Program-made: the position numbers and the translations under genes
Shown here: positions 7,787 to 64,000 of the stretch, piece after piece
Layout: each line of letters starts with the position of its first letter
Position numbering within the stretch: the stretch's first letter is position 1
The notes under the pieces: generated by a model
Seen by the model: the letters and a program-made list of their open reading frames with translations, nothing else
Database searches by the model: none
Told to the model about the DNA's origin: nothing
Assembly: GCA_026395295.1 (NCBI GenBank)
Contig: JAPLYZ010000006.1
Span: 21,836-85,835, forward strand
Reading direction: 5' to 3'
From: Candidatus Staskawiczbacteria bacterium
Lineage (GTDB): Bacteria > Patescibacteriota > Minisyncoccia > Minisyncoccales > Staskawiczbacteraceae
DNA: 64,000 nucleotides

Positions 7787-7801
7787 TCGGTGTCATAAAC
7801 C

Positions 7802-8512: not shown

Positions 8513-8540
8513 ATAGCTACCGTAGTATACGGATACTTTT

Positions 8541-8560: not shown

Positions 8561-8589
8561 CAGCGTATTAGCTGGGTGGGCAGTTTAAT

Positions 8590-17612: not shown

Positions 17613-17634
17613 TTTGGTTTGCGGTACTTACAAA

Positions 17635-17679
17635 GGCTACTTATTCGCAGAAAGGCGAATAGGCAGCCTCTTTTTTTTT
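17635..17679 (+). terminator. Terminator of cassette C
   Basis: 14-bp stem ggctacttattcgc / gcgaataggcagcc with one mismatch, then a T9 run. Confidence 0.7.
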
Positions 17680-17730
17680 GTTTCGAAACATCATCTTGCT
17701 TCCTATTATGTTTTTTGGTACAATAGAAAT

Positions 17731-22149: not shown

Positions 22150-22170
22150 CCCTTTTGGGGCGGTTAGTAT

Positions 22171-22198
22171 GCGGAGCTTATTAAGCCCGCTTTTTTTT
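22171..22198 (+). terminator. Terminator of cassette D
   Basis: gcggagctt / aagcccgc stem followed by T8. Confidence 0.65.
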
Positions 22199-22266
22199 GT
22201 AAATAGTTTGCATTTTTGTTGTAAAAGGAGTATCAATAAGTAATAATAATTAAAAATTAAAAAACT

Positions 22267-25353: not shown

Positions 25354-25378
25354 GCTTTCGCGTTTGCGAGAGCAAGCA

Positions 25379-25409
25379 CCCAGTGCAGAAATGCACAGGG
25401 TCTTTTTTT
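25379..25409 (+). terminator. Terminator of cassette E
   Basis: cccagtgca-gaaa-tgcacaggg followed by tcttttttt. Confidence 0.7.
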
Positions 25410-25442
25410 GTCTGCGCGAGCATTTTCTGATATAATAAAACC

Positions 25443-33805: not shown

Positions 33806-33858
33806 AGGAGTAGCACTTTGTCAAATCAACAAAACTCCTAAACCCAGAAAGGCCAATT

Positions 33859-34161
33859 ATGAATAAAGTGGAAGCGTTAGTCAGCAGTCAAGGACTATAC
33901 ATTGTGGTCGTGCTGGTCGAGATGGTGTCGGTTTTCCGTCGATCACGCGACAACGCAAAAGAGTTTTTTGTGGTGACCGTAGTCGGTCAAGGTAGTGTTG
34001 GCGCCAACCTGATTGCGGCTGGCAAGGATGCAGGGCTCACGCCCACGGATATTGGCTTTGTTGCCCATAAGCTTCAAATTCCTTTACCCGAAGACGCCGG
34101 CATCCCCGACATGCACGAGCCCCGTGGCAAGGCTAACAGGTTCACCTTCGCCCTTCCGTAA
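33859..34161 (+). CDS. GC-rich cassette F: hypothetical 100-aa protein
   Basis: ORF in a GC-rich block bracketed by its own promoter and terminator, with a weak SD (gaaagg). No motif recognised. Confidence 0.45.
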   Translation: MNKVEALVSSQGLYIVVVLVEMVSVFRRSRDNAKEFFVVTVVGQGSVGANLIAAGKDAGLTPTDIGFVAHKLQIPLPEDAGIPDMHEPRGKANRFTFALP

Positions 34162-34180
34162 GGGTGAACAAAACAGCAAG

Positions 34181-34210
34181 AGCGTTCCACTTGGAGCGCT
34201 TCTTTTTTTT
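34181..34210 (+). terminator. Terminator of cassette F
   Basis: agcgttcca-ct-tggagcgct followed by tctttttttt. Confidence 0.65.
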
Positions 34211-34217
34211 ACAGGTA

Positions 34218-34246
34218 TTGACTTATTGCTTGGCTTAATATAACAT
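34218..34246 (+). promoter_or_regulatory. secE-nusG-rplK promoter
   Basis: TTGACT (34218-34223), 17-nt spacer, TAACAT (34241-34246). Confidence 0.5.
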
Positions 34247-45145: not shown

Positions 45146-45172
45146 AATATTAAAATAAATTCACCACAAGTC

Positions 45173-45192
45173 AGGTTGTCATATGACAACCT
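45173..45192. repeat. Second copy of the 20-bp perfect palindrome aggttgtcatatgacaacct
   Basis: Exact match to 44434-44453. It lies 9 nt upstream of the HTH gene ATG. Confidence 0.9.
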
Positions 45193-45201
45193 AAAATAGA
45201 T

Positions 45202-50759: not shown

Positions 50760-52467
50760 TAAATGCGTCCAATGTCATCTGCCCCATGTCGCCTTTTCCG
50801 CGAGCTCTGACGGCTACGGCATTGGCAGAAATTTCTTTGTCTCCCAAAATTAAAAGATAGGGGATCTTTTGCATTTCCGCGGCCCTAATTTTTTTACCTA
50901 AAGTCTCATTTTCGTTTTTTATCTCTGCGCGGATATTCTTTTCTTTCAGCTCTTTCGCAATTTTTATTGCATATTCGCTGTGTTTTTCGGAAATTGGTAT
51001 CACGGCAACTTGAACCGGCGAGAGCCACAACGGAAAAGCCCCGGCATAATGCTCTATTAAGAATCCGATAAGCCTTTCGTGAGTGGAAAGAGGAGCCCGA
51101 TGTATGCATATAGGTGTTTTTTCCTTGCCGTCGGAATCTGTATATTTTAGGCCAAATCTTTCGGGCACAGCAAAATCAACCTGGTTAGTCGCTAAAGTAA
51201 ATTCGCGTCCAATGGCAGACCAAACTTCAACATCAATTTTTGGTCCATAAAACGCAGCTTCATTCTTAACCTCCACAAAAGGAATTTTTTCTTTTAGCAG
51301 CGTGGCACGCACCATGTCTTCGGTTTTTTTCCACAATTTTTCGTTGTTAATATATTTCTTTCCAAGCCCCTCTTTGCTGTGCGTGGAAAATCGCATCACA
51401 TATTTTTGTATGCCGAAGATTTTGAAATACTCTAAGTAAAGTTTTATAACCTCCAAAAATTCATTTGTGAATTGGTCCTCGGTGCAGTAAATATGAGCGT
51501 CGTTCATTTCCATAGACCGCACGCGCATCAAACCAAAAAGTTCGCCGGATTTTTCATAGCGGTAGCAAGTTCCGTATTCAGCTAAACGCAGAGGTAAATC
51601 GCGATAACTTCTTGGTTCTGCCGCAAAAATTTGGTGATGATGCGGGCAGTTCATTGCTTTCAAATAGTATTTTGTTTTTTTCCCATCCTCCTCTAAGATC
51701 ATCGGAGGGAACATTGTGTCGGCGTAATAAGGGAGATGTCCGGAAGTTTTATACATTATTTCTTTGGCAATGTGAGGAGTTTTAACTCTTAGGTATCCGG
51801 CTTTTGTTTCCATATCTTTTCCAAGTTTTTCTATCTCCTCAATTATTGCTGCTCCATTTGGAAGCCACAAAGGAAGTCCGGGCCCCACAAAATCTGAAAA
51901 GGTAAAAATTTTTAAGTCTTTGCCAAGCTTTCTGTGGTCGCGTTTTTCCGCTTCTTCCAGCATTTTCAAATGTTCTTGCAATTCTTTTTCGGTTTCAAAA
52001 GCCAGCCCATAAATTCTTGTGAGCATTTTATTTTTTTCGTTTCCTTTCCAGTAGGCGCCGGCAACCTTTGTAAGCTTAAAACTGTTTAGAGTTATCTCTT
52101 TTGTAGATTTTATATGAGGCCCTTTGCACAGATCAACAAACTCTCCGCTGGTGTATGTGGAAACAGTGTCTCCGGGCAATTCTTTTATCAGTTCTAATTT
52201 ATACGGCTGAACTGCAAACAGTTTTTTTGCTGTTCTTTTATTTATGTTTTTCTTTTCAAACTTGATTTTCTGAGAAATCAGCTCTTTCATTTTTTTTTCA
52301 ATCTCGGCCAAATCTTTTTCTTCTAAGGGTCTTTGCAGTTGAAAATCGTAATAGAATCCGTTTTCAATTGCAGGCCCAATTCCTAATTTCGCTTTAGGAA
52401 AAAGTTCCAAAACAGCCGAAGCCATAATGTGAGAGAGCGAATGCCGTATTTTTTCAATATTTTCCAT
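50722..52467 (-). CDS. thrS: Threonine--tRNA ligase (lacks the N-terminal TGS domain)
   Basis: Begins in the editing domain (RHSLSHIMASAV). Class II motifs (FRVRSMEMNDAH-type, GREFTLAT...) and a C-terminal anticodon-binding domain. Confidence 0.95.
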   Translation of the reverse strand: MENIEKIRHSLSHIMASAVLELFPKAKLGIGPAIENGFYYDFQLQRPLEEKDLAEIEKKMKELISQKIKFEKKNINKRTAKKLFAVQPYKLELIKELPGDTVSTYTSGEFVDLCKGPHIKSTKEITLNSFKLTKVAGAYWKGNEKNKMLTRIYGLAFETEKELQEHLKMLEEAEKRDHRKLGKDLKIFTFSDFVGPGLPLWLPNGAAIIEEIEKLGKDMETKAGYLRVKTPHIAKEIMYKTSGHLPYYADTMFPPMILEEDGKKTKYYLKAMNCPHHHQIFAAEPRSYRDLPLRLAEYGTCYRYEKSGELFGLMRVRSMEMNDAHIYCTEDQFTNEFLEVIKLYLEYFKIFGIQKYVMRFSTHSKEGLGKKYINNEKLWKKTEDMVRATLLKEKIPFVEVKNEAAFYGPKIDVEVWSAIGREFTLATNQVDFAVPERFGLKYTDSDGKEKTPICIHRAPLSTHERLIGFLIEHYAGAFPLWLSPVQVAVIPISEKHSEYAIKIAKELKEKNIRAEIKNENETLGKKIRAAEMQKIPYLLILGDKEISANAVAVRARGKGDMGQMTLDAFIDKIKEEIIKKQ

Positions 52468-52530
52468 TGTTTTTTAGTTAAATTTTATGTGTTCAATAAT
52501 CTTACCACCTTTCTTTCCATCTATAAAGTA

Positions 52531-52559
52531 TTGACAAGCTATTATTTATATGCTATTAT
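52531..52559 (+). promoter_or_regulatory. Promoter of GC-rich cassette G
   Basis: TTGACA (52531-52536), 17-nt spacer, TATTAT (52554-52559). Confidence 0.6.
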
Positions 52560-52634
52560 TAATACAGCACATTTAACGGGTTGGCTCTTGAAAGGAAGCC
52601 TTGGTGTCCCGAATAATACACCGCCCCAGTTCCC

Positions 52635-52925
52635 ATGAAATGTACACTGGTAATTAAAGCACCGCCTGGCATTCAGGGCGACATGCGTCTATACGAAGTA
52701 GAATTACCCTCTATCCCTCCGTTCGGCACGACTTTGTCGTTTATAACGCCAAAGTGTTCAAAGAACGGCAGGGTTTTCCACGTCAACGTTACGGGATGTG
52801 AAATAACCCTAGACTCTGAGACTCGGACAACAAACCTTGTCCTCGTCTTTGCCGAAGAGGATAAAGGACGTCCCGCGACTCTTGAAGATTGGGAGGAATT
52901 TGAGGAAACTTCGGTTGATGCATAG
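52635..52925 (+). CDS. GC-rich cassette G: hypothetical 96-aa acidic-tailed protein
   Basis: ORF in a GC-rich block, opposite in strand to the flanking thrS. No SD and no recognised motif. Confidence 0.4.
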   Translation: MKCTLVIKAPPGIQGDMRLYEVELPSIPPFGTTLSFITPKCSKNGRVFHVNVTGCEITLDSETRTTNLVLVFAEEDKGRPATLEDWEEFEETSVDA

Positions 52926-52950
52926 GGACAGAGCAGACCAACTGCTTTCA

Positions 52951-52978
52951 GGGCAATCGCAAGATTGCCTCTTTTTTT
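52951..52978 (+). terminator. Terminator of cassette G
   Basis: gggcaatc-gcaa-gattgcc followed by tcttttttt. Confidence 0.75.
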
Positions 52979-53031
52979 GCTTTAAATTGAGAATTAAGCA
53001 TGCCCCATTTGTCTTAGCGCAAGGTAGTAGA

Positions 53032-53062
53032 TATGTTTTTTCACGTGGCGTGAAAAAACATA
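53032..53062. repeat. Palindrome family 1, copy 1 (tatgttttttcacg-tgg-cgtgaaaaaacata)
   Basis: 14-bp perfect arms around a 3-nt centre. It is followed by tggTATAAT (-10 box at 53069-53074). Confidence 0.9.
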
Positions 53063-53120
53063 CTATGGTATAATGACATATTGGAAATGGGAATGGAAAT
53101 ATATTATTATATTAAAAAAT

Positions 53121-53660
53121 ATGAAAAAGATTTTAGATGAAATATTATGGAACATATATTATCAGACAGAGCAGGCTCGTGTTGGTGGCCGAAATGATGG
53201 CAGGTTTTTTATTTTGAACAGTGTGTTGAAAGATATCCATAATTTTAGTTCAAAACAATCAAACGCCGCAGTCTCTGACTTAAAAAAAGAAAAACTAATT
53301 GAGAAGAAAAATTACGAAGGCTCTGTTTTAATTTCTTTGACCGAAAGGGGAGTGTTGCGAGCGATTAATTTCAGATTTAGGAGGCTTGGCAACAAAAAAG
53401 AAAAATGGGACGGAAAGTGGCGTATGGTTTTCTTCAATATTCCAGAAAATCACAGAAAGGGGAGAGATGCATTAAGGTATCGGTTGAAAATGGCAGGGTT
53501 TCATAAACTGCAAGAAAGTATATTTATATATCCATATGAATGCGAAAAAGAAGTAAGAGATTTTATTAAGTTATTTAAATTGGAAAAATACGTCCGGTTT
53601 GGTTTATTGGATTTTATTGATGATGGTCAGCGTATTGCGGAATTCTTTAAATTAAAGTAA
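53121..53660 (+). CDS. Small wHTH + PaaX-like / Cas2-fold domain protein (paralog 1, 179 aa)
   Basis: KWDGKWRMVFFNIPENHRKGRDALRYRLKMAGFHKLQESIFIYPYE is the PaaX-family/Cas2-like pattern. The track ATG at 53073 overlaps the -10 box, so 53121 is preferred. Paralogous to 58178-58717. Confidence 0.7.
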   Translation: MKKILDEILWNIYYQTEQARVGGRNDGRFFILNSVLKDIHNFSSKQSNAAVSDLKKEKLIEKKNYEGSVLISLTERGVLRAINFRFRRLGNKKEKWDGKWRMVFFNIPENHRKGRDALRYRLKMAGFHKLQESIFIYPYECEKEVRDFIKLFKLEKYVRFGLLDFIDDGQRIAEFFKLK

Positions 53661-53662
53661 GT

Positions 53663-53683
53663 TTTTTCACGCCACGTGAAAAA
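53663..53683. repeat. Palindrome family 1, copy 2 (tttttcacg-cca-cgtgaaaaa)
   Basis: It starts 2 nt after the stop codon of the PaaX-like gene. The centre is inverted relative to copy 1. Confidence 0.9.
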
Positions 53684-53714
53684 GTAGTGTAATATGAAGC
53701 CGTTTCTGAAAGTG

Positions 53715-53743
53715 TTGACAAGGCCATTTGTGCATGCTATCAT
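53715..53743 (+). promoter_or_regulatory. Promoter of GC-rich cassette H
   Basis: TTGACA (53715-53720), 17-nt spacer, TATCAT (53738-53743). Confidence 0.6.
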
Positions 53744-53827
53744 AAATTTAGTTTTTTAACAATAAGTCGTTCTCGCCGGCTAACCCGCTCAACAGAGCAT
53801 GCGAGAGTTTGCAGAAGGAGGTAAAGT

Positions 53828-54079
53828 ATGAAAAGAGCATTTGTTTGGTTGGGCGCAATAATAATTTGCGTCATGTTCGCGTGCAGTGATTGGGGACACA
53901 GTTTTCTTTTTCCCAGCAGATTCAACGCAAAACCACAGGTTCCTTCTCTATTGCCGACGAACAGTTCTGCAACTTGGGTCCCGCCGTTTCGTGTGGCGGC
54001 GCCAAATACAAACCTCGGAGTCCGAGTGCTTAGTCGGCAGTGGATACCGAATGGTGCGGTCGCGTCGCCACGCAGGTAG
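53828..54079 (+). CDS. GC-rich cassette H: small secreted/lipoprotein-like protein (83 aa)
   Basis: Strong SD aaggaggt 6 nt before the ATG. Signal peptide MKRAFVWLGAIIICVMFAC with a lipobox-like Cys. Alternative overlapping frames exist (53886-54134). Confidence 0.5.
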   Translation: MKRAFVWLGAIIICVMFACSDWGHSFLFPSRFNAKPQVPSLLPTNSSATWVPPFRVAAPNTNLGVRVLSRQWIPNGAVASPRR

Positions 54080-54134
54080 CAGATGCATTAGGAGCTCGAG
54101 TATGTCGGCAGATGTCCAACAATTTTTGGTATAA

Positions 54135-54173
54135 GGGTAGGTCTAACGCAATGCGTCACCTGCCTCTTTTTTT
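54135..54173 (+). terminator. Terminator of cassette H
   Basis: gggtaggt...cacctgcc stem with G-U pairs, followed by tcttttttt. Confidence 0.55.
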
Positions 54174-54231
54174 GTTTGGACACCTCAATTCCACCATTCG
54201 AGGTATTTTACGCTTTGTGTTAGTTGGTATG

Positions 54232-54254
54232 TTTTTTCACGCCACGTGAAAAAA
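54232..54254. repeat. Palindrome family 1, copy 3 (ttttttcacg-cca-cgtgaaaaaa)
   Basis: 10-bp perfect arms. With its flanks (gtatgttttttcacgccacgtgaaaaaa) it is an inverted copy of copy 1. It lies 25 nt beyond the dnaE stop. Confidence 0.9.
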
Positions 54255-54278
54255 TATACTTTGAACCGCAGATTTAGT

Positions 54279-57200
54279 TTAGGCTTCTTTGGGAATGAGA
54301 ATCTCTTGAACGTCGTCGGCGACAATTTTAATTTCTCCGTTGCGGTCGTCAACTCTGCCTGCAACAAAAATAATTTTATTTTCCTGTAAGGCAACCGGGT
54401 TTCTTTCCAAAAGATTGGGGAAAATCACAACCTCGGTTTTCCCGGTTAAATCTTCGAGTTTCATAAACAGCATTGGCTGGCCCTTTTTTGTGATAATTTT
54501 TTTGACAGAAGAAACCAATCCGCCCAGGATGACTTTTTTATTTACAAAACCGGCATCAATTTTCGAAATAGCGGTTGTCCTTGTTTCAAAAAGTTTTTTA
54601 AAACCATTCAATGGATGCGAGCTTACATAAAGTCCTAAAAGTTCTTTTTCCCAGCCAAGTTTTTCAAAATTGCTTGCAGGGGTTGCTGATTCAAGCTTTA
54701 TATCGTGATTTATTTTTACACTGCTGTTGGCAAAAAGCCCCATTTGGTTTGTGTTTTGTTTTTTGTTATTTTCGCGGGCAATTTCCAGCATTTTTTCCAG
54801 GTTTTGCAAAAGCTGGTTTCTCTCGGCAAATTGGTCAAAAGCGCCGGCTTTGATTAACGCCTCCATTGATTTTTTATTCAAATCTTTTGACTTTACTCTG
54901 TGTATAAAATCTCCGATTGATTGAAATTGCCCGCCAGATTTTCTTTCCTCAACGACCGCGTCAATTATATTCACTCCAACATTTTTTACCGCCAGCAATC
55001 CAAACCTTATTTGGTTTTTTTCTGAAACCACGGTGAAGTTTTTCAAACTTTCGTTGATGTTTGGCGGTAAGACCTCAACTTCCATTTTTTTGCACTCGTC
55101 AATTAAAAATGAAATTCTTTCCACGTCGGCTCTTTCAGAAGTCAAAACAGACGCCATAAATTCAACAGGGTAGTGAGCCTTTAGGTAAGCTGTCTGGTAG
55201 GCGATTGTGGCGTAAGCTGCTGAGTGCGATTTGTTGAAACCGTAAGAAGCAAAAGGCAAAACCCACTGCCACAATTCCTCGGCAATTTTTTTTGAAACGC
55301 CGTTTTTCATGGCTCCCTGCACAAATTTTGTTTCTTGCGCGTCCAAAAGTTCTTTTATTTTTTTACCAACCGCTTTTCTTAAAACATCTGCCTCGCCCAA
55401 GGTGAATCCGCAAATTTCCTGGGCAATTTTCATCAGTTGTTCCTGATAAATGCAGATGCCCTGAGTTCCCCTTAAAATTGGTTCAAGCTTTGGATGCAGG
55501 TATTCGATCTTCTGCTTGTTGTGCTTTCTTTCAATGTAATCAGGAATAAATTGCATAGGACCCGGGCGATATAAAGCGACCATGGCAGTAATGTCTTCAA
55601 ATGTTGTAGGGTGAAGTTCTTTCAAATATCTTTTCATTCCATCAGATTCCAACTGGAACACAGAAGTAGTTAAAGCGTCCTGCAAGAGTTTATAGGTTTT
55701 CGCGTCGTCGTATGGAATTTTATCTAAATCAATTTTCAAATTATCGTGCAAAACATAAATGCGAGCCAAAGTGTCTTCAATTATGGTCAGGTTTTTCAAA
55801 CCTAAAAAGTCCATTTTCAAGAGCCCCAAGTCTTCAATGCCGTGCATTTCGTACTGGGTAATAATTCCTTCGTCGCCCTCTTTGGGCGGTCTTTGCAATG
55901 GAACAGTATTGGTTAAAGGTTCAGCCGAAATCACAACCCCGCAAGCATGAGTGGAAGCGTGTCGCGCAACTCCTTCCAACTTTTTTCCAAGGTCAATTAA
56001 GCGCTTGCACATTGGGTCTGTTTCGTATTTATCTTTAAATTCGTCAACTTTTTCCAAGGTTTCTGCCAAATCCATGCCCATGGGAATCATTTTCGCCAGT
56101 TGGTCGCAATAGGAATAGGTGTACTGCAAAGCCCTGCCAACATCGCGCACAACAGCCCTGGCGGCCATTGTTCCAAAGGTTATAATTTGCGCCACATGGT
56201 CAGAGCCATATTTTTGAGCTACATATTTTATAACTTCATCCCGCCTTCTGTCGGCAAAATCTAAGTCAATATCGGGCATGGAAATTCTCTCGGGGTTTAA
56301 AAATCTTTCAAAAAGCAGGTCGTGCTTCAACGGGTCAACGTTTGTGATGTTGGTTAAATAAGCAACCAAAGATCCGCCTGCCGAGCCTCTGCCAGGGCCC
56401 ACGATAATTCTGTTTTGCTTTGACCAATTCACAAAATCTTGGACAATCAAAAAGTACCCGGCAAAACCGGTTTTTTCGATTACCGAAAGCTCATAGTTCA
56501 TCCTGTCATTTATTTTTTTCAGAAGCTCGGCATCTGTAATTTCGCCAAATCTTGTTTTTAATCCTTGCTGGCAAAGTTCCTCTAAAAATTTTTCTGCTGT
56601 TTTTCCTTCCGGTAACGGGAATGTCGGAAGCTTTGTTTTTCCCAGTTCAATTTTTAAGTTGCAGGCATCAGCTATTTTTTGTGTGTTTTCAATGGCCTCG
56701 GGAACATCTTTAAAATGTTCGGCCATTTCTTCTGGAGAAAACATAGAAAAATTATCTTCGGTCATGGTTAGCCGTTCTGTGTCGTTGGCGTCGGCCCCCG
56801 TGTTTATCAACATTAAAACATCTTGTGCCTCGGAGTCCTCTTTTTTTAAATAATGAATATCATTCGTCGCCACCAAAGGAATGCCGGTTTTTTTTGAGAG
56901 CTCAATTAATCTTTTGTTGGCGGTTTCTTGTTCGGGTATGTGTTCGTGATGTTGCAACTCTAAATAAAAATTTCCTTTACCGAAAAACTTTTCATATTTT
57001 TTGGCTGTTTCTTCTGCTTCGTCTAATTTATTTGCCAAAAGCAATCTTGGGATTTTTCCTTGCACGCAGGCTGAAAGCCCAATCAAGCCCTCGGCATATT
57101 TTTCCAGAACCTCTTCATCAATTCTCGGCTTATAATAAAAGCCCTCCAGGTGGGCGATTGTCACAAGTTTCACTAGATTTTTATAACCTTGTTCGTTTCT

Positions 57201-57476
57201 TGCTAAAAGGATTAAGTGGTTACGTTTTGAGTCAATGTTTGGTCTTTTATCGGAAAGTTTTTCAAAAGCAGTATAAATTTCGCATCCGATTATTGGTTTT
57301 ATTCCTTTGGACTTTGCTTTTTTATAAAATTCAATGGCGCCGTACATAACTCCGTGGTCAGTTATGGCAACAGAATTCATTCCCAGTTCTTTGACGTAAT
57401 CTAAAAGCTCGTCAATTTTTGGCAAACCGTCAAGCAAAGAATAGTGGCTGTGAACGTGTAAATGTGTGAATTTCAT
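54279..57476 (-). CDS. dnaE: DNA polymerase III alpha subunit
   Basis: N-terminal PHP domain (FTHLHVHSHYSLLDG), polymerase core (PDIDLDF, GLLKMDFLGLKNL), and a C-terminal OB fold. Confidence 0.97.
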   Translation of the reverse strand: MKFTHLHVHSHYSLLDGLPKIDELLDYVKELGMNSVAITDHGVMYGAIEFYKKAKSKGIKPIIGCEIYTAFEKLSDKRPNIDSKRNHLILLARNEQGYKNLVKLVTIAHLEGFYYKPRIDEEVLEKYAEGLIGLSACVQGKIPRLLLANKLDEAEETAKKYEKFFGKGNFYLELQHHEHIPEQETANKRLIELSKKTGIPLVATNDIHYLKKEDSEAQDVLMLINTGADANDTERLTMTEDNFSMFSPEEMAEHFKDVPEAIENTQKIADACNLKIELGKTKLPTFPLPEGKTAEKFLEELCQQGLKTRFGEITDAELLKKINDRMNYELSVIEKTGFAGYFLIVQDFVNWSKQNRIIVGPGRGSAGGSLVAYLTNITNVDPLKHDLLFERFLNPERISMPDIDLDFADRRRDEVIKYVAQKYGSDHVAQIITFGTMAARAVVRDVGRALQYTYSYCDQLAKMIPMGMDLAETLEKVDEFKDKYETDPMCKRLIDLGKKLEGVARHASTHACGVVISAEPLTNTVPLQRPPKEGDEGIITQYEMHGIEDLGLLKMDFLGLKNLTIIEDTLARIYVLHDNLKIDLDKIPYDDAKTYKLLQDALTTSVFQLESDGMKRYLKELHPTTFEDITAMVALYRPGPMQFIPDYIERKHNKQKIEYLHPKLEPILRGTQGICIYQEQLMKIAQEICGFTLGEADVLRKAVGKKIKELLDAQETKFVQGAMKNGVSKKIAEELWQWVLPFASYGFNKSHSAAYATIAYQTAYLKAHYPVEFMASVLTSERADVERISFLIDECKKMEVEVLPPNINESLKNFTVVSEKNQIRFGLLAVKNVGVNIIDAVVEERKSGGQFQSIGDFIHRVKSKDLNKKSMEALIKAGAFDQFAERNQLLQNLEKMLEIARENNKKQNTNQMGLFANSSVKINHDIKLESATPASNFEKLGWEKELLGLYVSSHPLNGFKKLFETRTTAISKIDAGFVNKKVILGGLVSSVKKIITKKGQPMLFMKLEDLTGKTEVVIFPNLLERNPVALQENKIIFVAGRVDDRNGEIKIVADDVQEILIPKEA

Positions 57477-57525
57477 TGTTGTTTATTCTGTTTATTTTAC
57501 TTTTTATGCTCCTCGCGGTCAACCA

Positions 57526-57554
57526 TTGACAAGCATATCAAAGTATGCAATACT
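57526..57554 (+). promoter_or_regulatory. Promoter of cassette I (divergent from dnaE)
   Basis: TTGACA (57526-57531), 17-nt spacer, AATACT (57549-57554). Confidence 0.5.
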
Positions 57555-57583
57555 CAATGTAAGCTCATTAACAATTTGCTGAT

Positions 57584-57790
57584 ATGAAAAAAATAAAGTT
57601 GCTGACATGTGTTGGGTTGGTCTGTTTCTCTGTATTGTTGGTGTTAAGCTTTCTTTCAGACACTGACATTGTCCATGTTGTGAAATATATAATGGGTGGC
57701 ACAACAGTTATTTGTCTCGGCGTTGCCGACTTTCTCGTGACTCGGCAGAAATGTAGAGACATCAACAACAGCCGTCTTTACAAGCCCTAA
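57584..57790 (+). CDS. Cassette I gene 1: small two-TM membrane protein (68 aa)
   Basis: Two hydrophobic helices. Moderately GC-enriched. Confidence 0.5.
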   Translation: MKKIKLLTCVGLVCFSVLLVLSFLSDTDIVHVVKYIMGGTTVICLGVADFLVTRQKCRDINNSRLYKP

Positions 57791-57802
57791 GAAAGGAGCA
57801 TT

Positions 57803-58006
57803 ATGTTTTTCAAAAAATGGTTTAGACAAAGAAAGCTGGCGAAGTTGGAAAAAGACTTGGTCAGAGCAAGGTCATTGCTTGCATCATACAAAGGTATTAG
57901 TTCTTCTGCCGCAGATTCTTTCTTAACATGGCAGGCGTGGGCGCCGGAGGGTTTCTACTCAAGGGAAGTTAGTAGGCTGGAACAGGAAATCCAGTCGTTG
58001 AGATAA
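57803..58006 (+). CDS. Cassette I gene 2: small basic coiled-coil protein (67 aa)
   Basis: Good SD (aaaggag) 6 nt upstream. Heptad-like KLAKLEKDLVRARSLL...LEQEIQSL. Confidence 0.5.
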   Translation: MFFKKWFRQRKLAKLEKDLVRARSLLASYKGISSSAADSFLTWQAWAPEGFYSREVSRLEQEIQSLR

Positions 58007-58029
58007 CGGCGAAGTAATTTTCGGCTAAA

Positions 58030-58091
58030 CCTCGGATGAGAAATCTCGCAAAACAATTTTGCGTGGAATCTCATCGCGGGGTTCTTTTTTT
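58030..58091 (+). terminator. Terminator of cassette I (long compound hairpin)
   Basis: cctcggatgaga...tctcatcgcgggg outer stem, with an inner cgcaaaa-caa-ttttgcg, followed by ttcttttttt. Confidence 0.6.
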
Positions 58092-58113
58092 GTATTAATT
58101 ATTTATGTCATCC

Positions 58114-58153
58114 TCTCGGTAAAAACTACGCCATGGCGTAGTTTTTACCGAGA
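58114..58153. repeat. Palindrome family 2, copy 1: perfect 40-bp palindrome tctcggtaaaaactacgcca|tggcgtagtttttaccgaga
   Basis: Read directly from the sequence. It is followed by tggTATAAT (-10 box at 58166-58171) and the ATG at 58178, so the transcript looks leaderless. Confidence 0.95.
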
Positions 58154-58177
58154 CTGGATTTGTGGTATAATGAATAT

Positions 58178-58717
58178 ATGAGCAATACAAGAGAAAAGAT
58201 ATTATTACTTTTGTTGGGAGGGTTAGCTTTTGGTTGTAGTTATACGTCTCGAAATCAGTGGAGAATATTACGAACCGTCTCACGGGAGTGGAAAAAATTA
58301 GATCAAAAAGAATTAAGAGAGGGAATAACATATTTGTATAGATTGGGGGTTCTCGATAGAGAAGAAAATAGTGATGGAATTTTTAAAGTTTCATTAACAG
58401 AAAAGGGTAAATTAAAGGCGTTAAATTGTCGGCTTAACAGTATAAAAAATAAAGAAATAAAATGGGATAAGAAATGGAGGATGGTTTCTTTTGATGTCCC
58501 TCAAAAGTTTAAAAAAGAAAGGGATGTCTTGCGCAGAAAATTAAAAAAGATTGGATTTTGTGAATTGCAAAAGAGTGTTTTTATAACTCCTTTTGATTGC
58601 AAGGAGGAAATAGAGGATTTAGTTAAGCGCTTTGAATTGGACGAATACGTCCGTTTCGGAATTTTAGAGTATATTGACAGAGAGGGCTATTTCAGAAAAT
58701 TTTTCAAGGTAAATTAA
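58178..58717 (+). CDS. Small wHTH + PaaX-like / Cas2-fold domain protein (paralog 2, 179 aa)
   Basis: KWDKKWRMVSFDVPQKFKKERDVLRRKLKKIGFCELQKSVFITPFD. The ATG at 58178 lies 6 nt after the -10 box. Same length as paralog 1. Confidence 0.7.
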   Translation: MSNTREKILLLLLGGLAFGCSYTSRNQWRILRTVSREWKKLDQKELREGITYLYRLGVLDREENSDGIFKVSLTEKGKLKALNCRLNSIKNKEIKWDKKWRMVSFDVPQKFKKERDVLRRKLKKIGFCELQKSVFITPFDCKEEIEDLVKRFELDEYVRFGILEYIDREGYFRKFFKVN

Positions 58718-58722
58718 ATGAC

Positions 58723-58762
58723 TCTCGGTAAAAACTACGCCATGGCGTAGTTTTTACCGAGA
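58723..58762. repeat. Palindrome family 2, copy 2: identical 40-bp palindrome
   Basis: Exact repeat. The shared 45-mer is 58113-58157 = 58722-58766. It starts 5 nt after the stop codon and ends 8 nt before the rnhB ATG. Confidence 0.95.
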
Positions 58763-58770
58763 CTGGCGTT

Positions 58771-59460
58771 ATGAACTATCCGAATTTTGAAGAGGAAAAA
58801 AAATTATGGAAAAAAGGGTATAAATTTGTTGTTGGTTTAGATGAGGCAGGCAGGGGGCCTTTAGCTGGTCCGGTTGTTGCTGGCGCGGTTATCATAAATC
58901 CGAAGCACGAAATGCGAAACCCGAAACAATATCGAATTTCGAGTTTAGGTATAAGGGATTCTAAACAGTTGTCAGAAAAGCAGCGAGAACGTTTGTTCAA
59001 ATTTTTGACTCGGCACCAAGATATTAGATGGGGGATTGGCATTGTTTCGGAAAAAATAATTGATAAAATCAACATTTTGGAGGCGACAAAACTGGCAATG
59101 CAGAAAGCAGTAGAGAATTTAAAAAAAGATGGGTGGGTTCATAATTCACGCTATCGCGCGAAAAGTGAACCTGGTGTAAAAGTGGATTTTTTGTTAATTG
59201 ATGGGAATTTTAGGATAAAATCTAATGTTCCTCAGAAATCCATTATTAAAGGAGACCAAAAAGTTGTTTCAATTTCGGCGGCGAGCATAATTGCCAAAGT
59301 TACCAGGGACAGAATAATGAAAAAAATTCATAAAAAATACCCGCAGTATAATTTTGCAAAGCACAAAGGGTATCCAACAAAGTTGCACAGAGAAATGATA
59401 AAAAAATTTGGAATTTGTCCTATCCACAGAAAGTCTTTTTATCCTATATCGTCAATGTGA
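58771..59460 (+). CDS. rnhB: Ribonuclease HII
   Basis: VGLDEAGRGPLAGPVVAGAV, DSKQLS, IIAKVTRD, GYPT. Confidence 0.93.
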   Translation: MNYPNFEEEKKLWKKGYKFVVGLDEAGRGPLAGPVVAGAVIINPKHEMRNPKQYRISSLGIRDSKQLSEKQRERLFKFLTRHQDIRWGIGIVSEKIIDKINILEATKLAMQKAVENLKKDGWVHNSRYRAKSEPGVKVDFLLIDGNFRIKSNVPQKSIIKGDQKVVSISAASIIAKVTRDRIMKKIHKKYPQYNFAKHKGYPTKLHREMIKKFGICPIHRKSFYPISSM

Positions 59461-59470
59461 ATATTAACTA

Positions 59471-59499
59471 AAAAACTGCCCCGTTGCCGGGGCAGTTTT
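59471..59499. terminator. Bidirectional terminator
   Basis: aaaaa, then ctgccccg-ttgc-cggggcag, then tttt, between convergent genes. Confidence 0.8.
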
Positions 59500-59509
59500 G
59501 GTTTATTCT

Positions 59510-60187
59510 CTACTGAAACGGCGAGATCTCTTTCCACGTCGGCGTAGTCAGGTTTGTCTTCACGGTCACGTTATTGAGGTAGCTGGTGCTACAGCAGTAG
59601 GTTCCGGGACTGTCGCAAACTTGCAGGTTGGCAGTCTTTGTTCCTACGGTAGAGTAGAGATGAGTAACAGAGCTTGCCTTGCAACTGGCATCTCCTGCGC
59701 TGTCGCAAGTGGCGCCGTCTCCATAGCTCCAGAGATATGTTCGGTTGCCGTTTGTTACGCAAGACTGGGCAGTGTTGCTTGCGTCGTAGCAGATTGAAGT
59801 GTCTTTGAAGGTAACAGGACGACCCAGCAGAACATTGGCGGGGTCAAGCGTGAATGACGGGCTCGGCCATGATTTAGTTGCCGTTGCAAAGTATGTGCCG
59901 GGCATAGTTGTAGTTGTTCCTCCGTAATACCATGTGGCAGAACTACACGGATGGGTCGCGTCGCACGCTCTTACTCGCCAGTAGTATCGAAGAGTGCCTG
60001 TAGTGTTGTAGAGTAATTCATTTTTTGTCCCCGGGTTGATGCTATTGATGTGAACAGGTCCTGTAATGACCGAAGGGTTGAAAGTTCCGCTAGGATAACC
60101 CTGTGTACTGCTGGCAAAGTAGTCTATAGAAGAGAACGTACTACTTTGTGACACTTGCAAATCAAATCCTGCGCTAGAATCGCACAA
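59510..60187 (-). CDS. PKD-domain C-terminal segment, probably the frameshifted continuation of the giant surface protein
   Basis: Contains FKDTS...YLWSYGDG...HLYSTVGTKTANLQVCD (PKD). It has only a TTG start and no RBS, and overlaps the upstream ORF by 64 nt in the -1 frame. Confidence 0.55.
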   Translation of the reverse strand: MCDSSAGFDLQVSQSSTFSSIDYFASSTQGYPSGTFNPSVITGPVHINSINPGTKNELLYNTTGTLRYYWRVRACDATHPCSSATWYYGGTTTTMPGTYFATATKSWPSPSFTLDPANVLLGRPVTFKDTSICYDASNTAQSCVTNGNRTYLWSYGDGATCDSAGDASCKASSVTHLYSTVGTKTANLQVCDSPGTYCCSTSYLNNVTVKTNLTTPTWKEISPFQ

Positions 60188-63100
60188 TTAAGATTTATCC
60201 AGCCTGTTACAGCACTGCTATAAGTGTTGTCGTAAACAGAGTCGCTTCCGCCCCAACCCCATTTGCTAAGTTCGGCAGGTGATGTGCTTGGACCAATGAG
60301 GGTATTTTGTAGTTTTATCCAGCCACCCCATGCCCCTCTGTTGGAATTTAATAACGTTCCGCTACAAGCAGTTTGGTCGCTGAAGACAGAACAAGCTCTT
60401 GCCCAGCCGGTGACAGTGTAATCTCCTGCGCCATCGCAGGCTTGTCCTGCGTCAGGCAGGTCAACACAAGCTGGATAGTTTGGAACGTCCGGATAAGGAC
60501 TGACAGGAGAAAATCTTATCCAGCCAATGTTCTCTGACCAGCCATAACCGGAAAGATAGCCGTTTGGTTCAATGTTAACTCCATAGCTAACTGCTCCTCC
60601 ACCACCAGTGACACCGCCGTAAGAAGTGTTGTTAAGACTTATCCAACCAATGTTTTCTGACCACGCCCAGCCATAAACATTGTGCGATGTTCCGCCAGTG
60701 CTGTTGTTCCAGGATAGATTAAAACTGCTGGTTTTTGAATTTCCGGCGTTGTCAGTGACAGTCAGGCTTATAGAATAATTACCTTGTGCGTTCGCCGAAA
60801 TTAATGTGTCTTCCGTGTTTGGAGAGCTGAAAGTAATTGCGCCTGGTCCCGAAACCTTTGCCCAAGTATACGAAGCAATTCCGCTTTCTGCATCGCTTGT
60901 TGTAGCGTCCTCAAAGAATTGATCCATTTCGGTTCTGTCAGCCCCAACAATCACCGTTGGAGCCACGGTGTCTATTCTGATCATTCCCGAGCTGGCTGTT
61001 TCGCTATTGCCGGCATTATTTGTTGAAAAAAATCTGATGTATGAAGTGTTAAGCGTTGAAATAGCAACAGGTGTTGAGTAGGTTGTTGCTGGAGCGCACG
61101 TGTTGTTTGTGTCATTGCAGTATTTTGTTGTTGCGCAACCCGAGAGTAAATCACTGCAAGCCAGAGTAATTAGGATGTTGGTTTGATTGGTCCAGTTCCC
61201 GAAGGTATAAGCAGTTCCTCCTGCCGTGGCTGTGGCAGAAGTGGATGGACCAGAGGTTTGCCTGTTAATTGTTTTTGAATTAGTTGTCTCGTTATTTCCA
61301 GCGCTGTCTGTTGAATAGAATCTGAAGTATGAAGTTCCAAGCGTTGTAACGGTTACTGGTCCTGCATAAGGAGTTGCTGGCGTACAGCTGGAACCACTGG
61401 TGCAGTAATATGTGTTGGCGCAATTTGAGCCCGAATCATCGCTGCAAGTTAAAGTAACTACAACGCTAGATTGATTGGTCCAATTTCCGAAAGTGTAGCT
61501 GGTTCCTCCTGCCGTGGCTGTGGCAGAAGTGGAGGGAGGGGTTACGTCATAGAAAAAACTTGATGAGGCTCCAGCCCAACTAGTGCCGGAAGTATTGGTT
61601 GCTTTTGCCGAAAAATAATATCTGGTGCCAGAAATCAGGCCAGTAATGTTTTTAGAAAAAGTAGCAGCTGTTTGGGGTTGGCTTGGGCTGGTTGGAATGG
61701 AAGAATAGTCCCAATTTGCAGGAGTTTGTCCTCCATCAGTTGTTCCCCAATAGAAAGTGACAGTTGGGTTGGCCGCGCCGACTGAAGTAATACTTCCGTT
61801 CAGTGTAGCGTTGCCTGATGATATGTTAGTCGCCGGGCTTAATGTAATAGTGGGAGGCAAGGTATATTTTTTTACAATGTATTGCAAAGCAAATCCTGTA
61901 AAGTCTCCGAAAGTATAAGGCTCGGTTCCAACACTATGGGTCGGTCCTACTTTAGTTCCAGACGAATCAAGTTTTGTAACATTAGAACTGCCAAAATCAC
62001 CAGTCCAAACATTTCCCGAGGCATCAATAGCGGCTCCATAAAGAGTATATCCGACATAATACGGCGTTCCTATAGCAACTCCATTGGAGTCAATCTTTCT
62101 TATAGTGCCGTCATAATAACTGGCAATCCAAACATTTCCCGAGGCATCAACGGCAAGTCCCTGTGTATAATCTCCAGCATATGATGCCAATAGTCTAGTT
62201 CCATTGGAATCGCTAGGACTGAACTTTGCAATATTATAAGGACCATAAAAATAATTGGCAACCCATATATATCCCGACTTATCAACGGCAATTCCGTATG
62301 GATGACCTCCGGCGCTACCGGCGGGAGTTGTAAATACCTTGGTCCTATTGGGATTTAGTTTTGTTATATTATCACTGCCAGAATTAGCAACCCATATATA
62401 TCCGGATCCATCTACAGCAATTCCGTAAGGGCCGGTTCCAACAACACCGGCGGTGGTTGTTCCTAAAATAGTTCTACTGGTAGGGTTAATCTCTGTAACG
62501 GTGTTACTAGCGGAATTGGTAACCCATACATATCCATTGTTATCTATAGCAATTCCCTGAGGCTGGGTTCCAACAGCATATGGTGATCCTGTGACGGGTG
62601 TTCCATTGGAGTCAAGTTCTGTGACGGTGTTATCGCCCCAATTGGCAACCCAAACATTTCCGGAGTCATCAACTGCAACTCCAACGGGATTTAATCCGAC
62701 GGGATATGTTCCCAACGTATTTCCCATGGAATCAAGTTTTGTGACAGTGTTATCATTGTAATTAGCTATCCAAATATAAGGAGTCAAAACAGAGGTGGTG
62801 TGAATCACCAATGCTTTGTTGTAGCCCAAAGAGCCGGTGGTTCCTGGAACCGGCAATGTTAGCGTGGCAGAGTTTCCCGCAGCGTCTTTTATTGTTCCCG
62901 CAAGCGCGGTTGTGGAAGCGTAGTCCAAATCAGAAGAAGTGTTGTTGGCGCCAACAGTGTAATTGAATGTGAGATTAGCAGAGTTTGAGCCGGATGCGTA
63001 ATTTACCGCGGTGGTTACAGGATTTCCTGTTGATAAGGTGAGTTGAGGGGTTCCGGTGACAAGAACAGTTTCGCTGAAGGTTGCTTGTATAGAAATCACG

Positions 63101-64000
63101 CCCCCAGCCTTATACCAGCCGTTAGCAGTAGAGGAAGTAACGTTGGTAATTGTTGGTGCAGTGGTGTCAATGGTTATTGTAAGCGCCGAAGAAGCGGGCG
63201 AAGTAGAACTGGATAAAGTTTGTGTTGCAGTTATGGAGTAAACTCCGGAAGAAAGCGCGGAGGAGGTAATTGTAACAGTGCTTGACGTGCAAGTTCCGGT
63301 GCCCACAGAACTTGCGTTGGCATACAAAGTGACGGTGTCTCCTGTCGCGCAGGAAATAGTAAAAGCGGGGGTAGGATTGGAAGTCATATTATCGGTACTG
63401 GAAGAACCAGTATCGCTGGCGGTAGTGAGATCCGGGATTCCCGGAGCAACTGGCATGCTCTTAGGGTGTGCGCTGGGGGCTTGGCCTACGAAATTTTGCA
63501 AGGCAAATCCGGTGAAGTCTCCCAAGGAATTAGGAGTAGCTCCGACGCTAAAAGTTCCTATTGAATTTCCAGATGAGTCAAGTTCTGTGACATCATTGCT
63601 AAAATCATTAACCACCCACACGTTTCCGGAACCATCAATTGCAATTCCTATGGGGTGATCTCCAACAGGATATGTCCCCAGAATATTTCCCGAGGAATCA
63701 AATTCCGTAACACTACTGCTTAAATCATTGGCAGTCCACACATTTCCGGAACCATCAACTGCAATGCCGTAAAGCCCGGAACCGCCTGCAGGATATGTTC
63801 CCAGAACGTTTCCCGAGTTATCAAGTTCTGTAACGTCGTCGCTGCCATAATTAGCCACCCATATATTATTTAAAGCATCAACCGCTATTCCAATTGGCCA
63901 AGTTCCAACAGAGTATGTTCCTAAAATGTTTCCTAAATGGTCAAGCTTAGTAACATCACTGCTTCGGTCGTTAGCAATCCAAACATTTCCAGTGTTGTCT
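60124..64000 (-). CDS. Giant secreted surface protein (5' end beyond the window): NHL/beta-propeller repeats, Ig-like domains, GWxWSENIGWI repeats
   Basis: Many repeats of the form GNVWVAN...D.TVTELDS.G....TY.VG..P.GIAVD. The reading frame stays open to position 64000 and the same repeat continues (…NIWVANYGSDDVTELD). Confidence 0.8.
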   Translation of the reverse strand, partial: DNTGNVWIANDRSSDVTKLDHLGNILGTYSVGTWPIGIAVDALNNIWVANYGSDDVTELDNSGNVLGTYPAGGSGLYGIAVDGSGNVWTANDLSSSVTEFDSSGNILGTYPVGDHPIGIAIDGSGNVWVVNDFSNDVTELDSSGNSIGTFSVGATPNSLGDFTGFALQNFVGQAPSAHPKSMPVAPGIPDLTTASDTGSSSTDNMTSNPTPAFTISCATGDTVTLYANASSVGTGTCTSSTVTITSSALSSGVYSITATQTLSSSTSPASSALTITIDTTAPTITNVTSSTANGWYKAGGVISIQATFSETVLVTGTPQLTLSTGNPVTTAVNYASGSNSANLTFNYTVGANNTSSDLDYASTTALAGTIKDAAGNSATLTLPVPGTTGSLGYNKALVIHTTSVLTPYIWIANYNDNTVTKLDSMGNTLGTYPVGLNPVGVAVDDSGNVWVANWGDNTVTELDSNGTPVTGSPYAVGTQPQGIAIDNNGYVWVTNSASNTVTEINPTSRTILGTTTAGVVGTGPYGIAVDGSGYIWVANSGSDNITKLNPNRTKVFTTPAGSAGGHPYGIAVDKSGYIWVANYFYGPYNIAKFSPSDSNGTRLLASYAGDYTQGLAVDASGNVWIASYYDGTIRKIDSNGVAIGTPYYVGYTLYGAAIDASGNVWTGDFGSSNVTKLDSSGTKVGPTHSVGTEPYTFGDFTGFALQYIVKKYTLPPTITLSPATNISSGNATLNGSITSVGAANPTVTFYWGTTDGGQTPANWDYSSIPTSPSQPQTAATFSKNITGLISGTRYYFSAKATNTSGTSWAGASSSFFYDVTPPSTSATATAGGTSYTFGNWTNQSSVVVTLTCSDDSGSNCANTYYCTSGSSCTPATPYAGPVTVTTLGTSYFRFYSTDSAGNNETTNSKTINRQTSGPSTSATATAGGTAYTFGNWTNQTNILITLACSDLLSGCATTKYCNDTNNTCAPATTYSTPVAISTLNTSYIRFFSTNNAGNSETASSGMIRIDTVAPTVIVGADRTEMDQFFEDATTSDAESGIASYTWAKVSGPGAITFSSPNTEDTLISANAQGNYSISLTVTDNAGNSKTSSFNLSWNNSTGGTSHNVYGWAWSENIGWISLNNTSYGGVTGGGGAVSYGVNIEPNGYLSGYGWSENIGWIRFSPVSPYPDVPNYPACVDLPDAGQACDGAGDYTVTGWARACSVFSDQTACSGTLLNSNRGAWGGWIKLQNTLIGPSTSPAELSKWGWGGSDSVYDNTYSSAVTGWINLNCAILAQDLICKCHKVVRSLL

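Follow-up and report, generated by a model that had tools for sequence, protein, structure and literature searches.

The stretch of DNA analyzed here (hereafter the window) covers 64,000 nucleotides of a Candidatus Staskawiczbacteria genome and contains a gene for a 179-aa protein placed between two copies of a palindrome, with a third copy further downstream. A palindrome, a TGnTATAAT promoter, the gene and a second palindrome together form a unit of about 0.65 kb, which recurs in related bacteria. Judged from its sequence, the protein is probably a minimal PaaX-type dimeric autorepressor, which would use the two flanking palindromes (copies 1 and 2) as operators, and the third palindrome (copy 3) would be a lineage-specific duplicate. 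An earlier note on this DNA had treated the 1.2-kb segment enclosed by copies 1 and 3 as one unit bounded by inverted repeats, whereas the recurring entity is the shorter palindrome–gene–palindrome module.

The layout was counted at 78 related loci with enough flanking sequence, using a minimal palindrome arm of 9 bp and regions of 200 bp upstream and 110 bp downstream of the gene. An upstream palindrome is present in 53 of the 78 loci, compared with about 0.25 expected, and a downstream palindrome in 50, compared with about 0.15 (background 1.2 per kb). Both sides carry a palindrome in 43 loci, and the two copies have like centres in 38 of these 43. The downstream copy is located within about 0-70 bp of the stop codon in all 50 loci that have it, and starts only 0-30 nt after the stop in many. 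Moreover, 80 of the 103 flanking palindromes (78%) are free of a loop, compared with 91 of 439 background palindromes (21%); the median arm is 17 bp. Because the symmetry runs through the centre without a loop, the flanking palindromes are best described as two-fold symmetric duplex DNA sites and not as RNA hairpins.

The protein and the palindromes of the window

The start of the gene at 53121 is supported by an NCBI protein with 100% identity (NT155_01040) and by about 270 homologs of the same length. The protein contains a PaaX_M domain (PF20803, termed "central Cas2-like domain" in Pfam) at residues 94-160, with an E-value of 2.4e-23 and a score of 82.5 bits against a cut-off of 24. The NCBIfam PaaX model TIGR02277 aligns with residues 42-161 and scores 41 bits against an equivalog cut-off of 264, while the Cas2 models of PADLOC and NCBIfam match weakly and Pfam HTH_27 gives a sub-threshold match. 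The AlphaFold2 model, with a predicted local distance difference test score (pLDDT) of 80, is composed of an N-terminal winged helix (H-H-H-β-β at residues 32-73) and a C-terminal β-α-β-β-α-β domain. In the Foldseek search with this model, the best PDB match is E. coli PaaX (8a39); the Cas2 chains 5zyf, 6jhz and 3exc match the C-terminal domain, and the winged helix-turn-helix (wHTH) proteins AF1382 and F93 match the N-terminal domain. These results agree with the PaaX/Cas2-fold wHTH assignment that the earlier note had made. In addition, full-length actinomycete PaaX regulators match the protein at 23-35% identity.

The protein ends at residue 179, and no Pfam match to the PaaX_C effector (phenylacetyl-CoA) domain was found. 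Sequence and model thus describe a predicted minimal PaaX-type DNA-binding protein without an effector-binding domain. The Cas2-like domain probably plays a role in dimerisation here, and possibly contacts DNA. Where the catalytic Asp of Cas2 aligns (YDVS in 3exc), the protein and its orthologs have Asn106 (FFNIPE); most relatives keep the Asp (FDIP or FDVP), and the paralog encoded in the window has FDVP. The leader of about 40 nt is without a clear Shine-Dalgarno sequence. The neighbouring genes include thrS, dnaE, rnhB, miaA, miaB and gatB, and no paa genes were found among them or at other loci, where rpoC and ftsK are the neighbours.

The window was scanned for TTTTTCACG-NNN-CGTGAAAAA exactly and with up to two mismatches, using shuffled sequence as control. 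Three exact matches are located at 53037-53057 (centre TGG), 53663-53683 (CCA) and 54233-54253 (CCA), compared with a mean of 0.01 in the shuffles, and no fourth match is present in the 64 kb even with two mismatches. The three copies described in the earlier note are therefore real. As also stated there, copies 1 and 3 are inverted repeats of each other, being 97% complementary over 32 nt; in direct orientation, they are 84% identical over 43 nt including flanks. The centre triplet switches between TGG and CCA from copy to copy. Copy 2 begins 2 nt past the stop codon of the 179-aa protein gene. The polarity of the palindromes, with the T-run 5', the A-run 3' and no trailing U-tract, is opposite to that of ordinary terminators in the window (A-run, looped stem, T-run), which bears out the view that they are not ordinary terminators.

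The position of copy 1 is in line with an operator function. The midpoint of its dyad, at 53047, precedes the inferred transcription start by about 34 nt, at the place expected for a -35 element, and no -35 element is recognisable there. Eight sequences were aligned, namely copy 3 and the upstream copies of the window, L004, L084-L087 and L137 (L and P numbers denote loci and proteins). Invariant among them are both half-sites (T5CACG and CGTGA5), a single arm base and the T just before the -10 element. The distance to the -10 element is fixed as well, and the surrounding intergenic DNA cannot be aligned. At the inspected orthologs without a downstream insert, little or nothing terminator-like is found between the converging gene and dnaE besides the palindrome.

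Conservation of the module and of its position

The family is large. It includes 269 close proteins, mostly of about 180 aa; the GTDB species representatives contain 363 relatives, and clustering at 50% identity gives 2,536 clusters (E up to 1e-10). The best 150 of these 2,536 clusters are mostly 170-240 aa long, with a few shorter fragments and one protein of 282 aa. The locus titles nearly all name Patescibacteria lineages, and a few are labelled otherwise. Several paralogs are present per genome, each with its own palindrome; P0018 is a further paralog in the metagenome-assembled genome (MAG) of the window. In the searchable literature, no paper was found on short Patescibacteria PaaX_M proteins, their palindromes or this layout.

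In most family loci, a TATAAT-like hexamer, often TG-extended, is located a median of about 17 bp past the upstream palindrome. In many of them (for example L002, L011-L013, L026, L028, L035, and 58166-58180 in the window), the ATG follows the -10 hexamer after 6-7 nt, and many family members are therefore expected to have leaderless mRNAs. Loci with copies on both sides hold two copies; three occur only in the window, and no array of at least three palindromes was found at other loci (about 80 looked at). A search for related copies, as the earlier note had proposed, matched 49 metagenome loci with the palindrome of the 179-aa protein gene, and wherever two copies lie about 570-660 bp apart, they always enclose a PaaX-like gene. 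Single matches are mostly on high-GC contigs with other centre triplets, which are probably chance matches, and a few are orphan copies in low-GC DNA.

The modules keep their chromosomal position in three synteny groups. The thrS–dnaE group contains the 179-aa protein gene of the window and L004, L020, L084-87, L137 and L044-46, with protein identity down to 41%. The rpoC–ftsK group contains L001, L002, L006, L008, L009, L023 and L024, and the dnaE–rnhB group consists of the paralog in the window and L031, L033, L036, L038 and L039. Because position is kept in all three, the modules do not behave as mobile elements, and the sequence comparison indicates stable inheritance. In addition, no target-site duplications were found at the modules and no dispersed repeats in the 64 kb, which hold exactly three and two copies of the two palindromes. 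No relatives of the protein were found in IMG/VR viral contigs or phage records, and on plasmids the sole matches are remote full-length PaaX regulators from actinomycetes. The open reading frames (ORFs) of 120 aa or more between 44.5 and 63.9 kb, the range to which the later statements on such genes also refer, were found to include no recombinase, transposase or cas gene.

Palindrome and protein diverge together. The palindromes differ between paralogs and lineages and are alike inside one locus. Along the thrS–dnaE series, both copies shift in parallel from T5CACG-TGG-CGTGA5 to TTGACGGTCGTCAA and T5GACGATCGTCA5 at 41-45% identity. Relatives at 75-77% identity located between rpoC and ftsK are flanked by another palindrome, …T6GGCTCGAGCCA6….

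Several comparisons bear on the domain that reads the site. In L020, L137 (P0093) and L028, the N-terminal winged helix is divergent, yet the palindrome is the same as in relatives sharing their C-terminal domain. These three are domain chimeras with the N-terminus of a distant subgroup; recombination has taken place within the gene. Conversely, near-identical winged helices combined with different C-terminal domains go with different cores, as seen in the 179-aa protein (CACG) and L001 and L002 (GGCT). Residue 116, located on helix α1 (KGR-x-AL-x-YR), varies with the first bases of the core, being Asp for CAC, Lys for GCC and Asn for G-N-C. In a Mantel-type test, the palindrome correlates with both domains, with partial correlations of 0.14 for the C-terminal and 0.09 for the N-terminal domain, and of 0.22 for helix α1 compared with 0.08 for H3 plus wing. 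The result is suggestive and serves as a lead.

A few orphan palindromes of the CACG type with typical TAC/GTA arms (L091, L093, L098, L099, L103, L125) are on contigs without a PaaX-like gene, and in L125 a TATAAT directly follows the palindrome. They may be additional sites of the regulon or what is left of lost modules. Another palindrome type, (T)CAGGTTGTCATATGACAACCT(A), is located at 45171-45194 in the window between an HD-domain gene and gatB; it could be the site of another regulator or a repetitive extragenic palindromic (REP)-like element. Hairpins with CAGGTTnnCATATGnnAACCTG, which resemble this type, adjoin orphan T5CACG…CGTGA5 palindromes in low-GC metagenome contigs (L091, L093, L099, L125). 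Among Logan contigs of the same strain, the independent assemblies L138 and L139 break 282 bp into the PaaX-like gene and L140 breaks at 330 bp. The breaks are probably due to the conservation of the C-terminal half between paralogs, and short-read MAGs may undercount or mis-join these modules.

Cassettes and the second module

The promoter, gene, GC-rich cassettes, lipoprotein-like ORF and terminators named in the earlier note are all present in the sequence (Table 1). The two cassettes beside the first module have a GC content of 0.47-0.55, compared with 0.39 for the whole window. Their bodies share no homology; only their promoters and terminator tails are alike, the tail TGCCTCTTTTTTTG being common to both and each terminator standing 52 nt from the next palindrome. 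The ORF of cassette 1 matches only two database proteins, itself and a 104-aa protein at 65% identity, and for that of cassette 2, 5.8 billion proteins yielded no homolog. Neither cassette ORF has a match in Pfam, NCBIfam, PHROG or PADLOC. Structured RNAs were considered and rejected for the cassettes, with fold z-scores of -1.5 and -0.6 (-0.6 for cassette 2). Neither a tRNA nor a tmRNA is present in the 64-kb window, nor does any Rfam family reach its gathering threshold there, and Rfam at E up to 1 over 52300-58800 gives a sole match, a chance one on the palindrome of the paralog.

Table 1 Features of the two modules and their cassettes in the window (RBS, ribosome-binding site).
Feature	Position	Strand	Description
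Cassette 1 promoter, TTGACA-17-TATTAT with TG	52531-52559	+	Strong sigma-70-type, 11/12 consensus
Cassette 1 ORF, 96 aa	52635-52925	+	GC 0.47; without Shine-Dalgarno sequence; no family match
Cassette 1 terminator, 8-bp GC stem + U7	52951-52980	+	-12.2 kcal/mol, z -3.5; 52 nt before copy 1
Palindrome copy 1	53032-53062	.	TATGTTTTTTCACG-TGG-CGTGAAAAAACATA; 14-nt arms; proposed primary operator
Extended -10 TGgTATAAT of the 179-aa protein gene	53066-53074	+	Read from sequence; no -35 match
Gene, 179 aa, N-terminal winged helix + PaaX_M (Cas2-like)	53121-53660	+	Profile, homolog and structure-model matches
Palindrome copy 2	about 53662-53685	.	GTTTTTTCACG-CCA-CGTGAAAAAG; proposed auxiliary operator (looping or roadblock)
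Cassette 2 promoter, TTGACA-17-TATCAT with TG	53715-53743	+	11/12 consensus; 72% identical to cassette 1 promoter block
Cassette 2 ORF, 83 aa	53828-54079	+	GC 0.52; GGAGG RBS; lipobox-like N-terminus (…MFAC)
Cassette 2 terminator, compound hairpin + U7	54133-54174	+	-15.8 kcal/mol, z -3.7
Palindrome copy 3	54227-54259	.	GTATGTTTTTTCACG-CCA-CGTGAAAAAATATAC; 15-nt arms, 1 mismatch; 20 nt beyond dnaE stop codon
Left cassette of second module	57527-58095	+	Promoter TTGACAAG… read by eye
Small ORFs of second module's cassette	57584-57790 (membrane-like), 57803-58006	+	ORF reading
Terminator of second module's cassette	58030-58090	+	RNA folding
Second module, whole	58114-58764	+	Palindrome - promoter - paralog - palindrome
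40-bp perfect palindrome TCTCGGTAAAAACTACGCCATGGCGTAGTTTTTACCGAGA, two identical copies	58116-58155, 58722-58761	.	Flank paralog
TGGTATAAT promoter element of paralog	58163-58171	+	7 nt past first 40-bp palindrome; leaderless spacing
Paralogous wHTH/PaaX_M gene	58178-58717	+	40% identity to the 179-aa protein; second palindrome starts 4 nt after stop

The left slot of the thrS–dnaE module combines a conserved promoter with changing contents. The promoter block of cassette 1 is conserved in the syntenic loci inspected (L004, L020, L137), back to back with the promoter region of thrS. Between thrS and the cassette promoter, a block ATCTTACCACCTTT at 52503-52514 is conserved as well (also in L004, L020 and L137); its minus-strand reading TGGTAAGAT is probably the extended -10 element of thrS, and the cassette and thrS promoters would therefore be a conserved divergent pair. 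Compared with L004 (79% nucleotide identity), homology extends through thrS to 52556, inside the -10 element of the cassette 1 promoter, and then breaks. From the first T of copy 1 (53037), it is seen again as far as copy 2 (53683), and a further homologous stretch begins at the dnaE stop codon. The transcribed left cassette has thus been replaced between loci. In each of the eight loci read, the left slot contains an unrelated ORF (96, 78, 105, 173+75, 133, 77, 82 and 67 aa) of higher GC content, in every case downstream of the resident promoter.

The downstream slot also varies, and the presence/absence polymorphism that the earlier note had suggested looking for does exist. Cassette 2 and copy 3 (53684-54259, about 575 bp) are missing from six related loci with this palindrome core (L004, L020, L084, L086, L087, L137), where copy 2 abuts the end of dnaE. 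Other downstream inserts are present in L045 (0.35 kb), L044 (0.8 kb) and L085 (1.5 kb), with a consensus promoter and a terminator in L045 and L085, both of which were read, and no extra palindrome copy is detectable at any of the three. Copies 1 and 3 have in common the derived states T6/A6, ATG/CAT outer arms and the left flank TAGTnGnT, which have no counterpart in orthologs and therefore indicate sequence exchange between the copies within this lineage. Moreover, L004 contains at 3563-3590, directly after copy 2, AAAAAACATA-aatgaggg-TATGTTTTTT, in which a right outer arm precedes a lone left outer arm without a core. This left arm is of the type found in copies 1 and 3 of the window, and the fragment may be the scar of a deletion between two palindromes.

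The second module lies between dnaE and rnhB, and this arrangement is conserved in the five other loci of its synteny group. Module and cassette are wholly absent from L086, in which dnaE directly abuts rnhB. The distance from module to conserved neighbour varies in each of the three synteny groups, on either side, between about 70 bp and 2 kb.

GC-rich DNA was also considered as a family-wide companion of the gene and rejected, the excess being only +0.03 at -300 to -400 bp (about 75 loci). GC-rich islands (0.47-0.52) without an adjacent PaaX-like module are found in the window at 6926-8575, 17226-17700, 21576-22200, 24301-25425, 33851-34225 and 59451-63875. Five ORFs were scanned in these islands, three of which (281, 176 and 141 aa) have no Pfam match; the others belong to the PAS and DHDPS families. 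The genome is compositionally mosaic in general.

Proposed regulation and alternative explanations

In the proposed mechanism, the PaaX_M (Cas2-like) domain would be the dimerisation module, as in PaaX, and the dimer would bind the dyad site T5-6CACG-N3-CGTGA5-6. Occupancy of copy 1 at the -35 position would exclude RNA polymerase and lead to negative autoregulation, in the manner of E. coli PaaX at the Px promoter. Copy 2 would be a second cognate site, and the two copies would most likely cooperate through a loop that spans the 0.6-kb gene; alternatively or in addition, it could act as a protein roadblock between the gene and the convergent transcription of dnaE and its neighbours. Copy 3 may have arisen in this lineage through recombination or gene conversion involving copy 1, either at the time the orphan cassette inserted between copy 2 and dnaE or later. 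Cassette 2, being now between two operator copies, may fall under the control of the same protein.

Known regulators provide precedents for parts of this mechanism. The closest is E. coli PaaX, which has a 39-bp palindrome (TGATTC-N27-GAATCA) as binding site and uses steric hindrance to repress its own promoter (review PMC9493321). The distal half-sites of that palindrome account for the length of the sites seen here. The proteins of E. coli and Pseudomonas resemble the present family in their winged-helix and PaaX_M domains and in the long palindromic operator at their own promoter. In contrast, the family described here is found in Patescibacteria as several paralogs per genome, each with a private palindrome on both sides of the gene, and the 179-aa protein lacks the phenylacetyl-CoA-binding domain and nearby paa genes. 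The looping systems lac O1/O2, gal OE/OI and deo also combine a primary operator at the promoter with another cognate one some hundreds of bp away, within or past the gene; here, however, the sites bracket the regulator's own gene, and looping is proposed. The C proteins of restriction-modification systems and the MarR-type autorepressors are likewise small dimeric HTH proteins acting on palindromic boxes at their own promoters, with specificity diverging between paralogs, but they have another domain architecture and no downstream duplicate site.

Several observations weigh against autorepression as a complete account. It leaves the need for a downstream copy unaccounted for, and the operator function is itself read from sequence. 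The distance between the upstream palindrome and the -10 element ranges from 2 to 45 bp and more between groups, so that there is no single fixed repression geometry across the family. About a third of the loci are without a clear palindrome on one side. In addition, self-complementarity of the outer arms persists at loci whose two copies differ from each other (L057, L058, L061, L067, L008, L019); this is unexpected for a simple operator and hints at selection for extrusion, or at templated correction within the palindrome. Palindrome identity also seems to follow the Cas2-like domain over the winged helix, which is unexpected for a PaaX/MarR-like reading head. Finally, the variable cassettes beside the modules are not accounted for by regulation alone.

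The last point leads to the explanation that the palindromes are cis sites of cassette gain and loss at a recombination or insertion hot spot (integron-like, or capture at a fragile site), with the protein as an architectural or targeting factor or as a passenger. It would explain why the 575-bp cassette 2 with copy 3, absent from six related loci, is bounded by two palindromes, why the left cassette is non-homologous in all eight loci read, and why homology with L004 resumes at the first T of copy 1. The variable gaps on both sides of the modules in the three synteny groups, the exchange between copies 1 and 3 and the TGG/CCA flips of the centre fit as well. However, the third copy is found only in the window, the inserts in L045, L044 and L085 came without a detectable extra palindrome, no recombinase, transposase or Cas1 is present, GC enrichment by the gene is weak (+0.03), and GC-rich islands without a module are found elsewhere in the window. 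A simpler null is that the modules occupy operon boundaries, which are among the few insertion-tolerant places in a compact genome. We consider the hot spot unlikely. The cassette-capture platform suggested in the earlier note could thus hold only in a weak form, in that the slots beside the modules are variable while the three other downstream inserts lack the extra palindrome. It is also doubtful, and slightly more so, that palindromes and Cas2-like protein mark, or perhaps create, insertion slots that capture GC-rich orphan cassettes under the control of the protein, with the Cas2-like domain reading the dyad core. If true, the Cas2 fold would have a new role in DNA recognition, and the arrangement would be the counterpart of an integron platform without a recombinase.

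A selfish or addiction module, in which a toxin-antitoxin-like unit carries the palindromes as terminal repeats or autoregulatory sites and the paralogs are diverged copies of the element, is very unlikely. VapD toxins and Cas2 have this fold in common, the catalytic Asp of Cas2 is kept in most family members, several paralogs per genome have their own repeats, and the dnaE–rnhB module with its cassette is entirely missing from L086. On the other hand, position is kept down to 41% protein identity, relatives are missing from the viral and phage records and plasmids have only full-length PaaX, target-site duplications and dispersed copies are lacking in the 64 kb, and the 179-aa protein has Asn at the Asp position and no partner gene. 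The earlier note had left open operators on the one hand and ends or recombination sites of a selfish element on the other; autoregulation is the better supported part, and the conserved thrS–dnaE position speaks against a selfish mobile element. Also very unlikely, in our estimation, are hairpins acting at the RNA level as unconventional terminators, 3'-end stabilisers or processing sites, either without the protein or with the Cas2-like domain binding the RNA hairpin. Hairpin nucleic acids are often bound by domains of the ferredoxin-like type, the RNA of copy 2 has a folding energy of -8 kcal/mol (z -3.2) and no U-tail, the outer arms show compensatory changes, and the downstream copy closely follows the stop codon in many loci, between converging genes without a visible canonical terminator. 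Yet most flanking palindromes keep their symmetry across the centre, where a hairpin loop has no need of it, the upstream copy precedes the -10 element and is thus outside the transcript of the gene, no U-tract follows the palindromes while the real terminators of the genome are canonical, and the centre triplet flips freely in orientation. Autorepression by the 179-aa protein remains the reading we favor.

Other known systems were compared with the module and found not to fit. Cas2 and VapD share with the protein the ferredoxin-like fold and the pattern (F/Y)D(I/V)x…R…L…GF…Q.S.F, but here a winged helix is fused, Asn replaces the catalytic Asp, and cas1 and a CRISPR array are lacking. CRISPR arrays normally have repeats of 23-55 bp and spacers of 21-72 bp. 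An adaptation module fails on the three repeats, spaced 626 and 570 bp apart with genes in between, and on the lack of a cas gene among the neighbours scanned, and the repeat-spacer resemblance raised in the earlier note is not upheld. REP-associated tyrosine transposases (RAYT) and their REP sequences likewise have a single gene bracketed by cognate palindromes that covary with the protein. They differ from the perfect, non-dispersed dyads described here in having imperfect hairpins and an HUH/Y1 transposase domain; a RAYT/REP assignment fails on the wHTH and PaaX_M domains and on the restriction of the palindromes to gene flanks in the window.

Integron attC cassettes and phage morons are comparable as variable foreign single-gene units beside a conserved platform. 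The cassettes have the promoter–ORF–terminator anatomy of morons, and the conserved resident promoter driving the left cassette can be likened to the integron Pc. In contrast to both systems, no integrase, array or phage context is found here, the cassettes mostly have their own promoter and terminator, and a palindrome bounds an insert only in the window. An integron fails on the lack of an intI-type recombinase and on cassette 2, which is not promoterless. An insertion sequence or miniature inverted-repeat transposable element fails on the conserved positions, the lack of a transposase domain and of further copies in the 64 kb, and the lack of viral or phage copies. Similarly, a Rho-independent terminator fails on the order of T-run and A-run, the missing trailing U and the loop-free form of 78% of the family palindromes.

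The analysis takes away a tempting but unsupported CRISPR-like reading of this locus. Almost nothing is known about transcriptional control in the Candidate Phyla Radiation, whose members have few regulators and no genetics. The minimal PaaX-like family, with several paralogs per roughly 1-Mb genome, offers a testable autoregulatory circuit and orthogonal repressor/operator parts. Since the cognate sites of its members can be read directly from the flanks of their own genes, the family would supply protein–site pairs by the dozen from which a specificity code could be worked out. Moreover, the slots with ever-changing orphan cassettes and near-consensus promoters bear on how genes are acquired and tamed in streamlined genomes.

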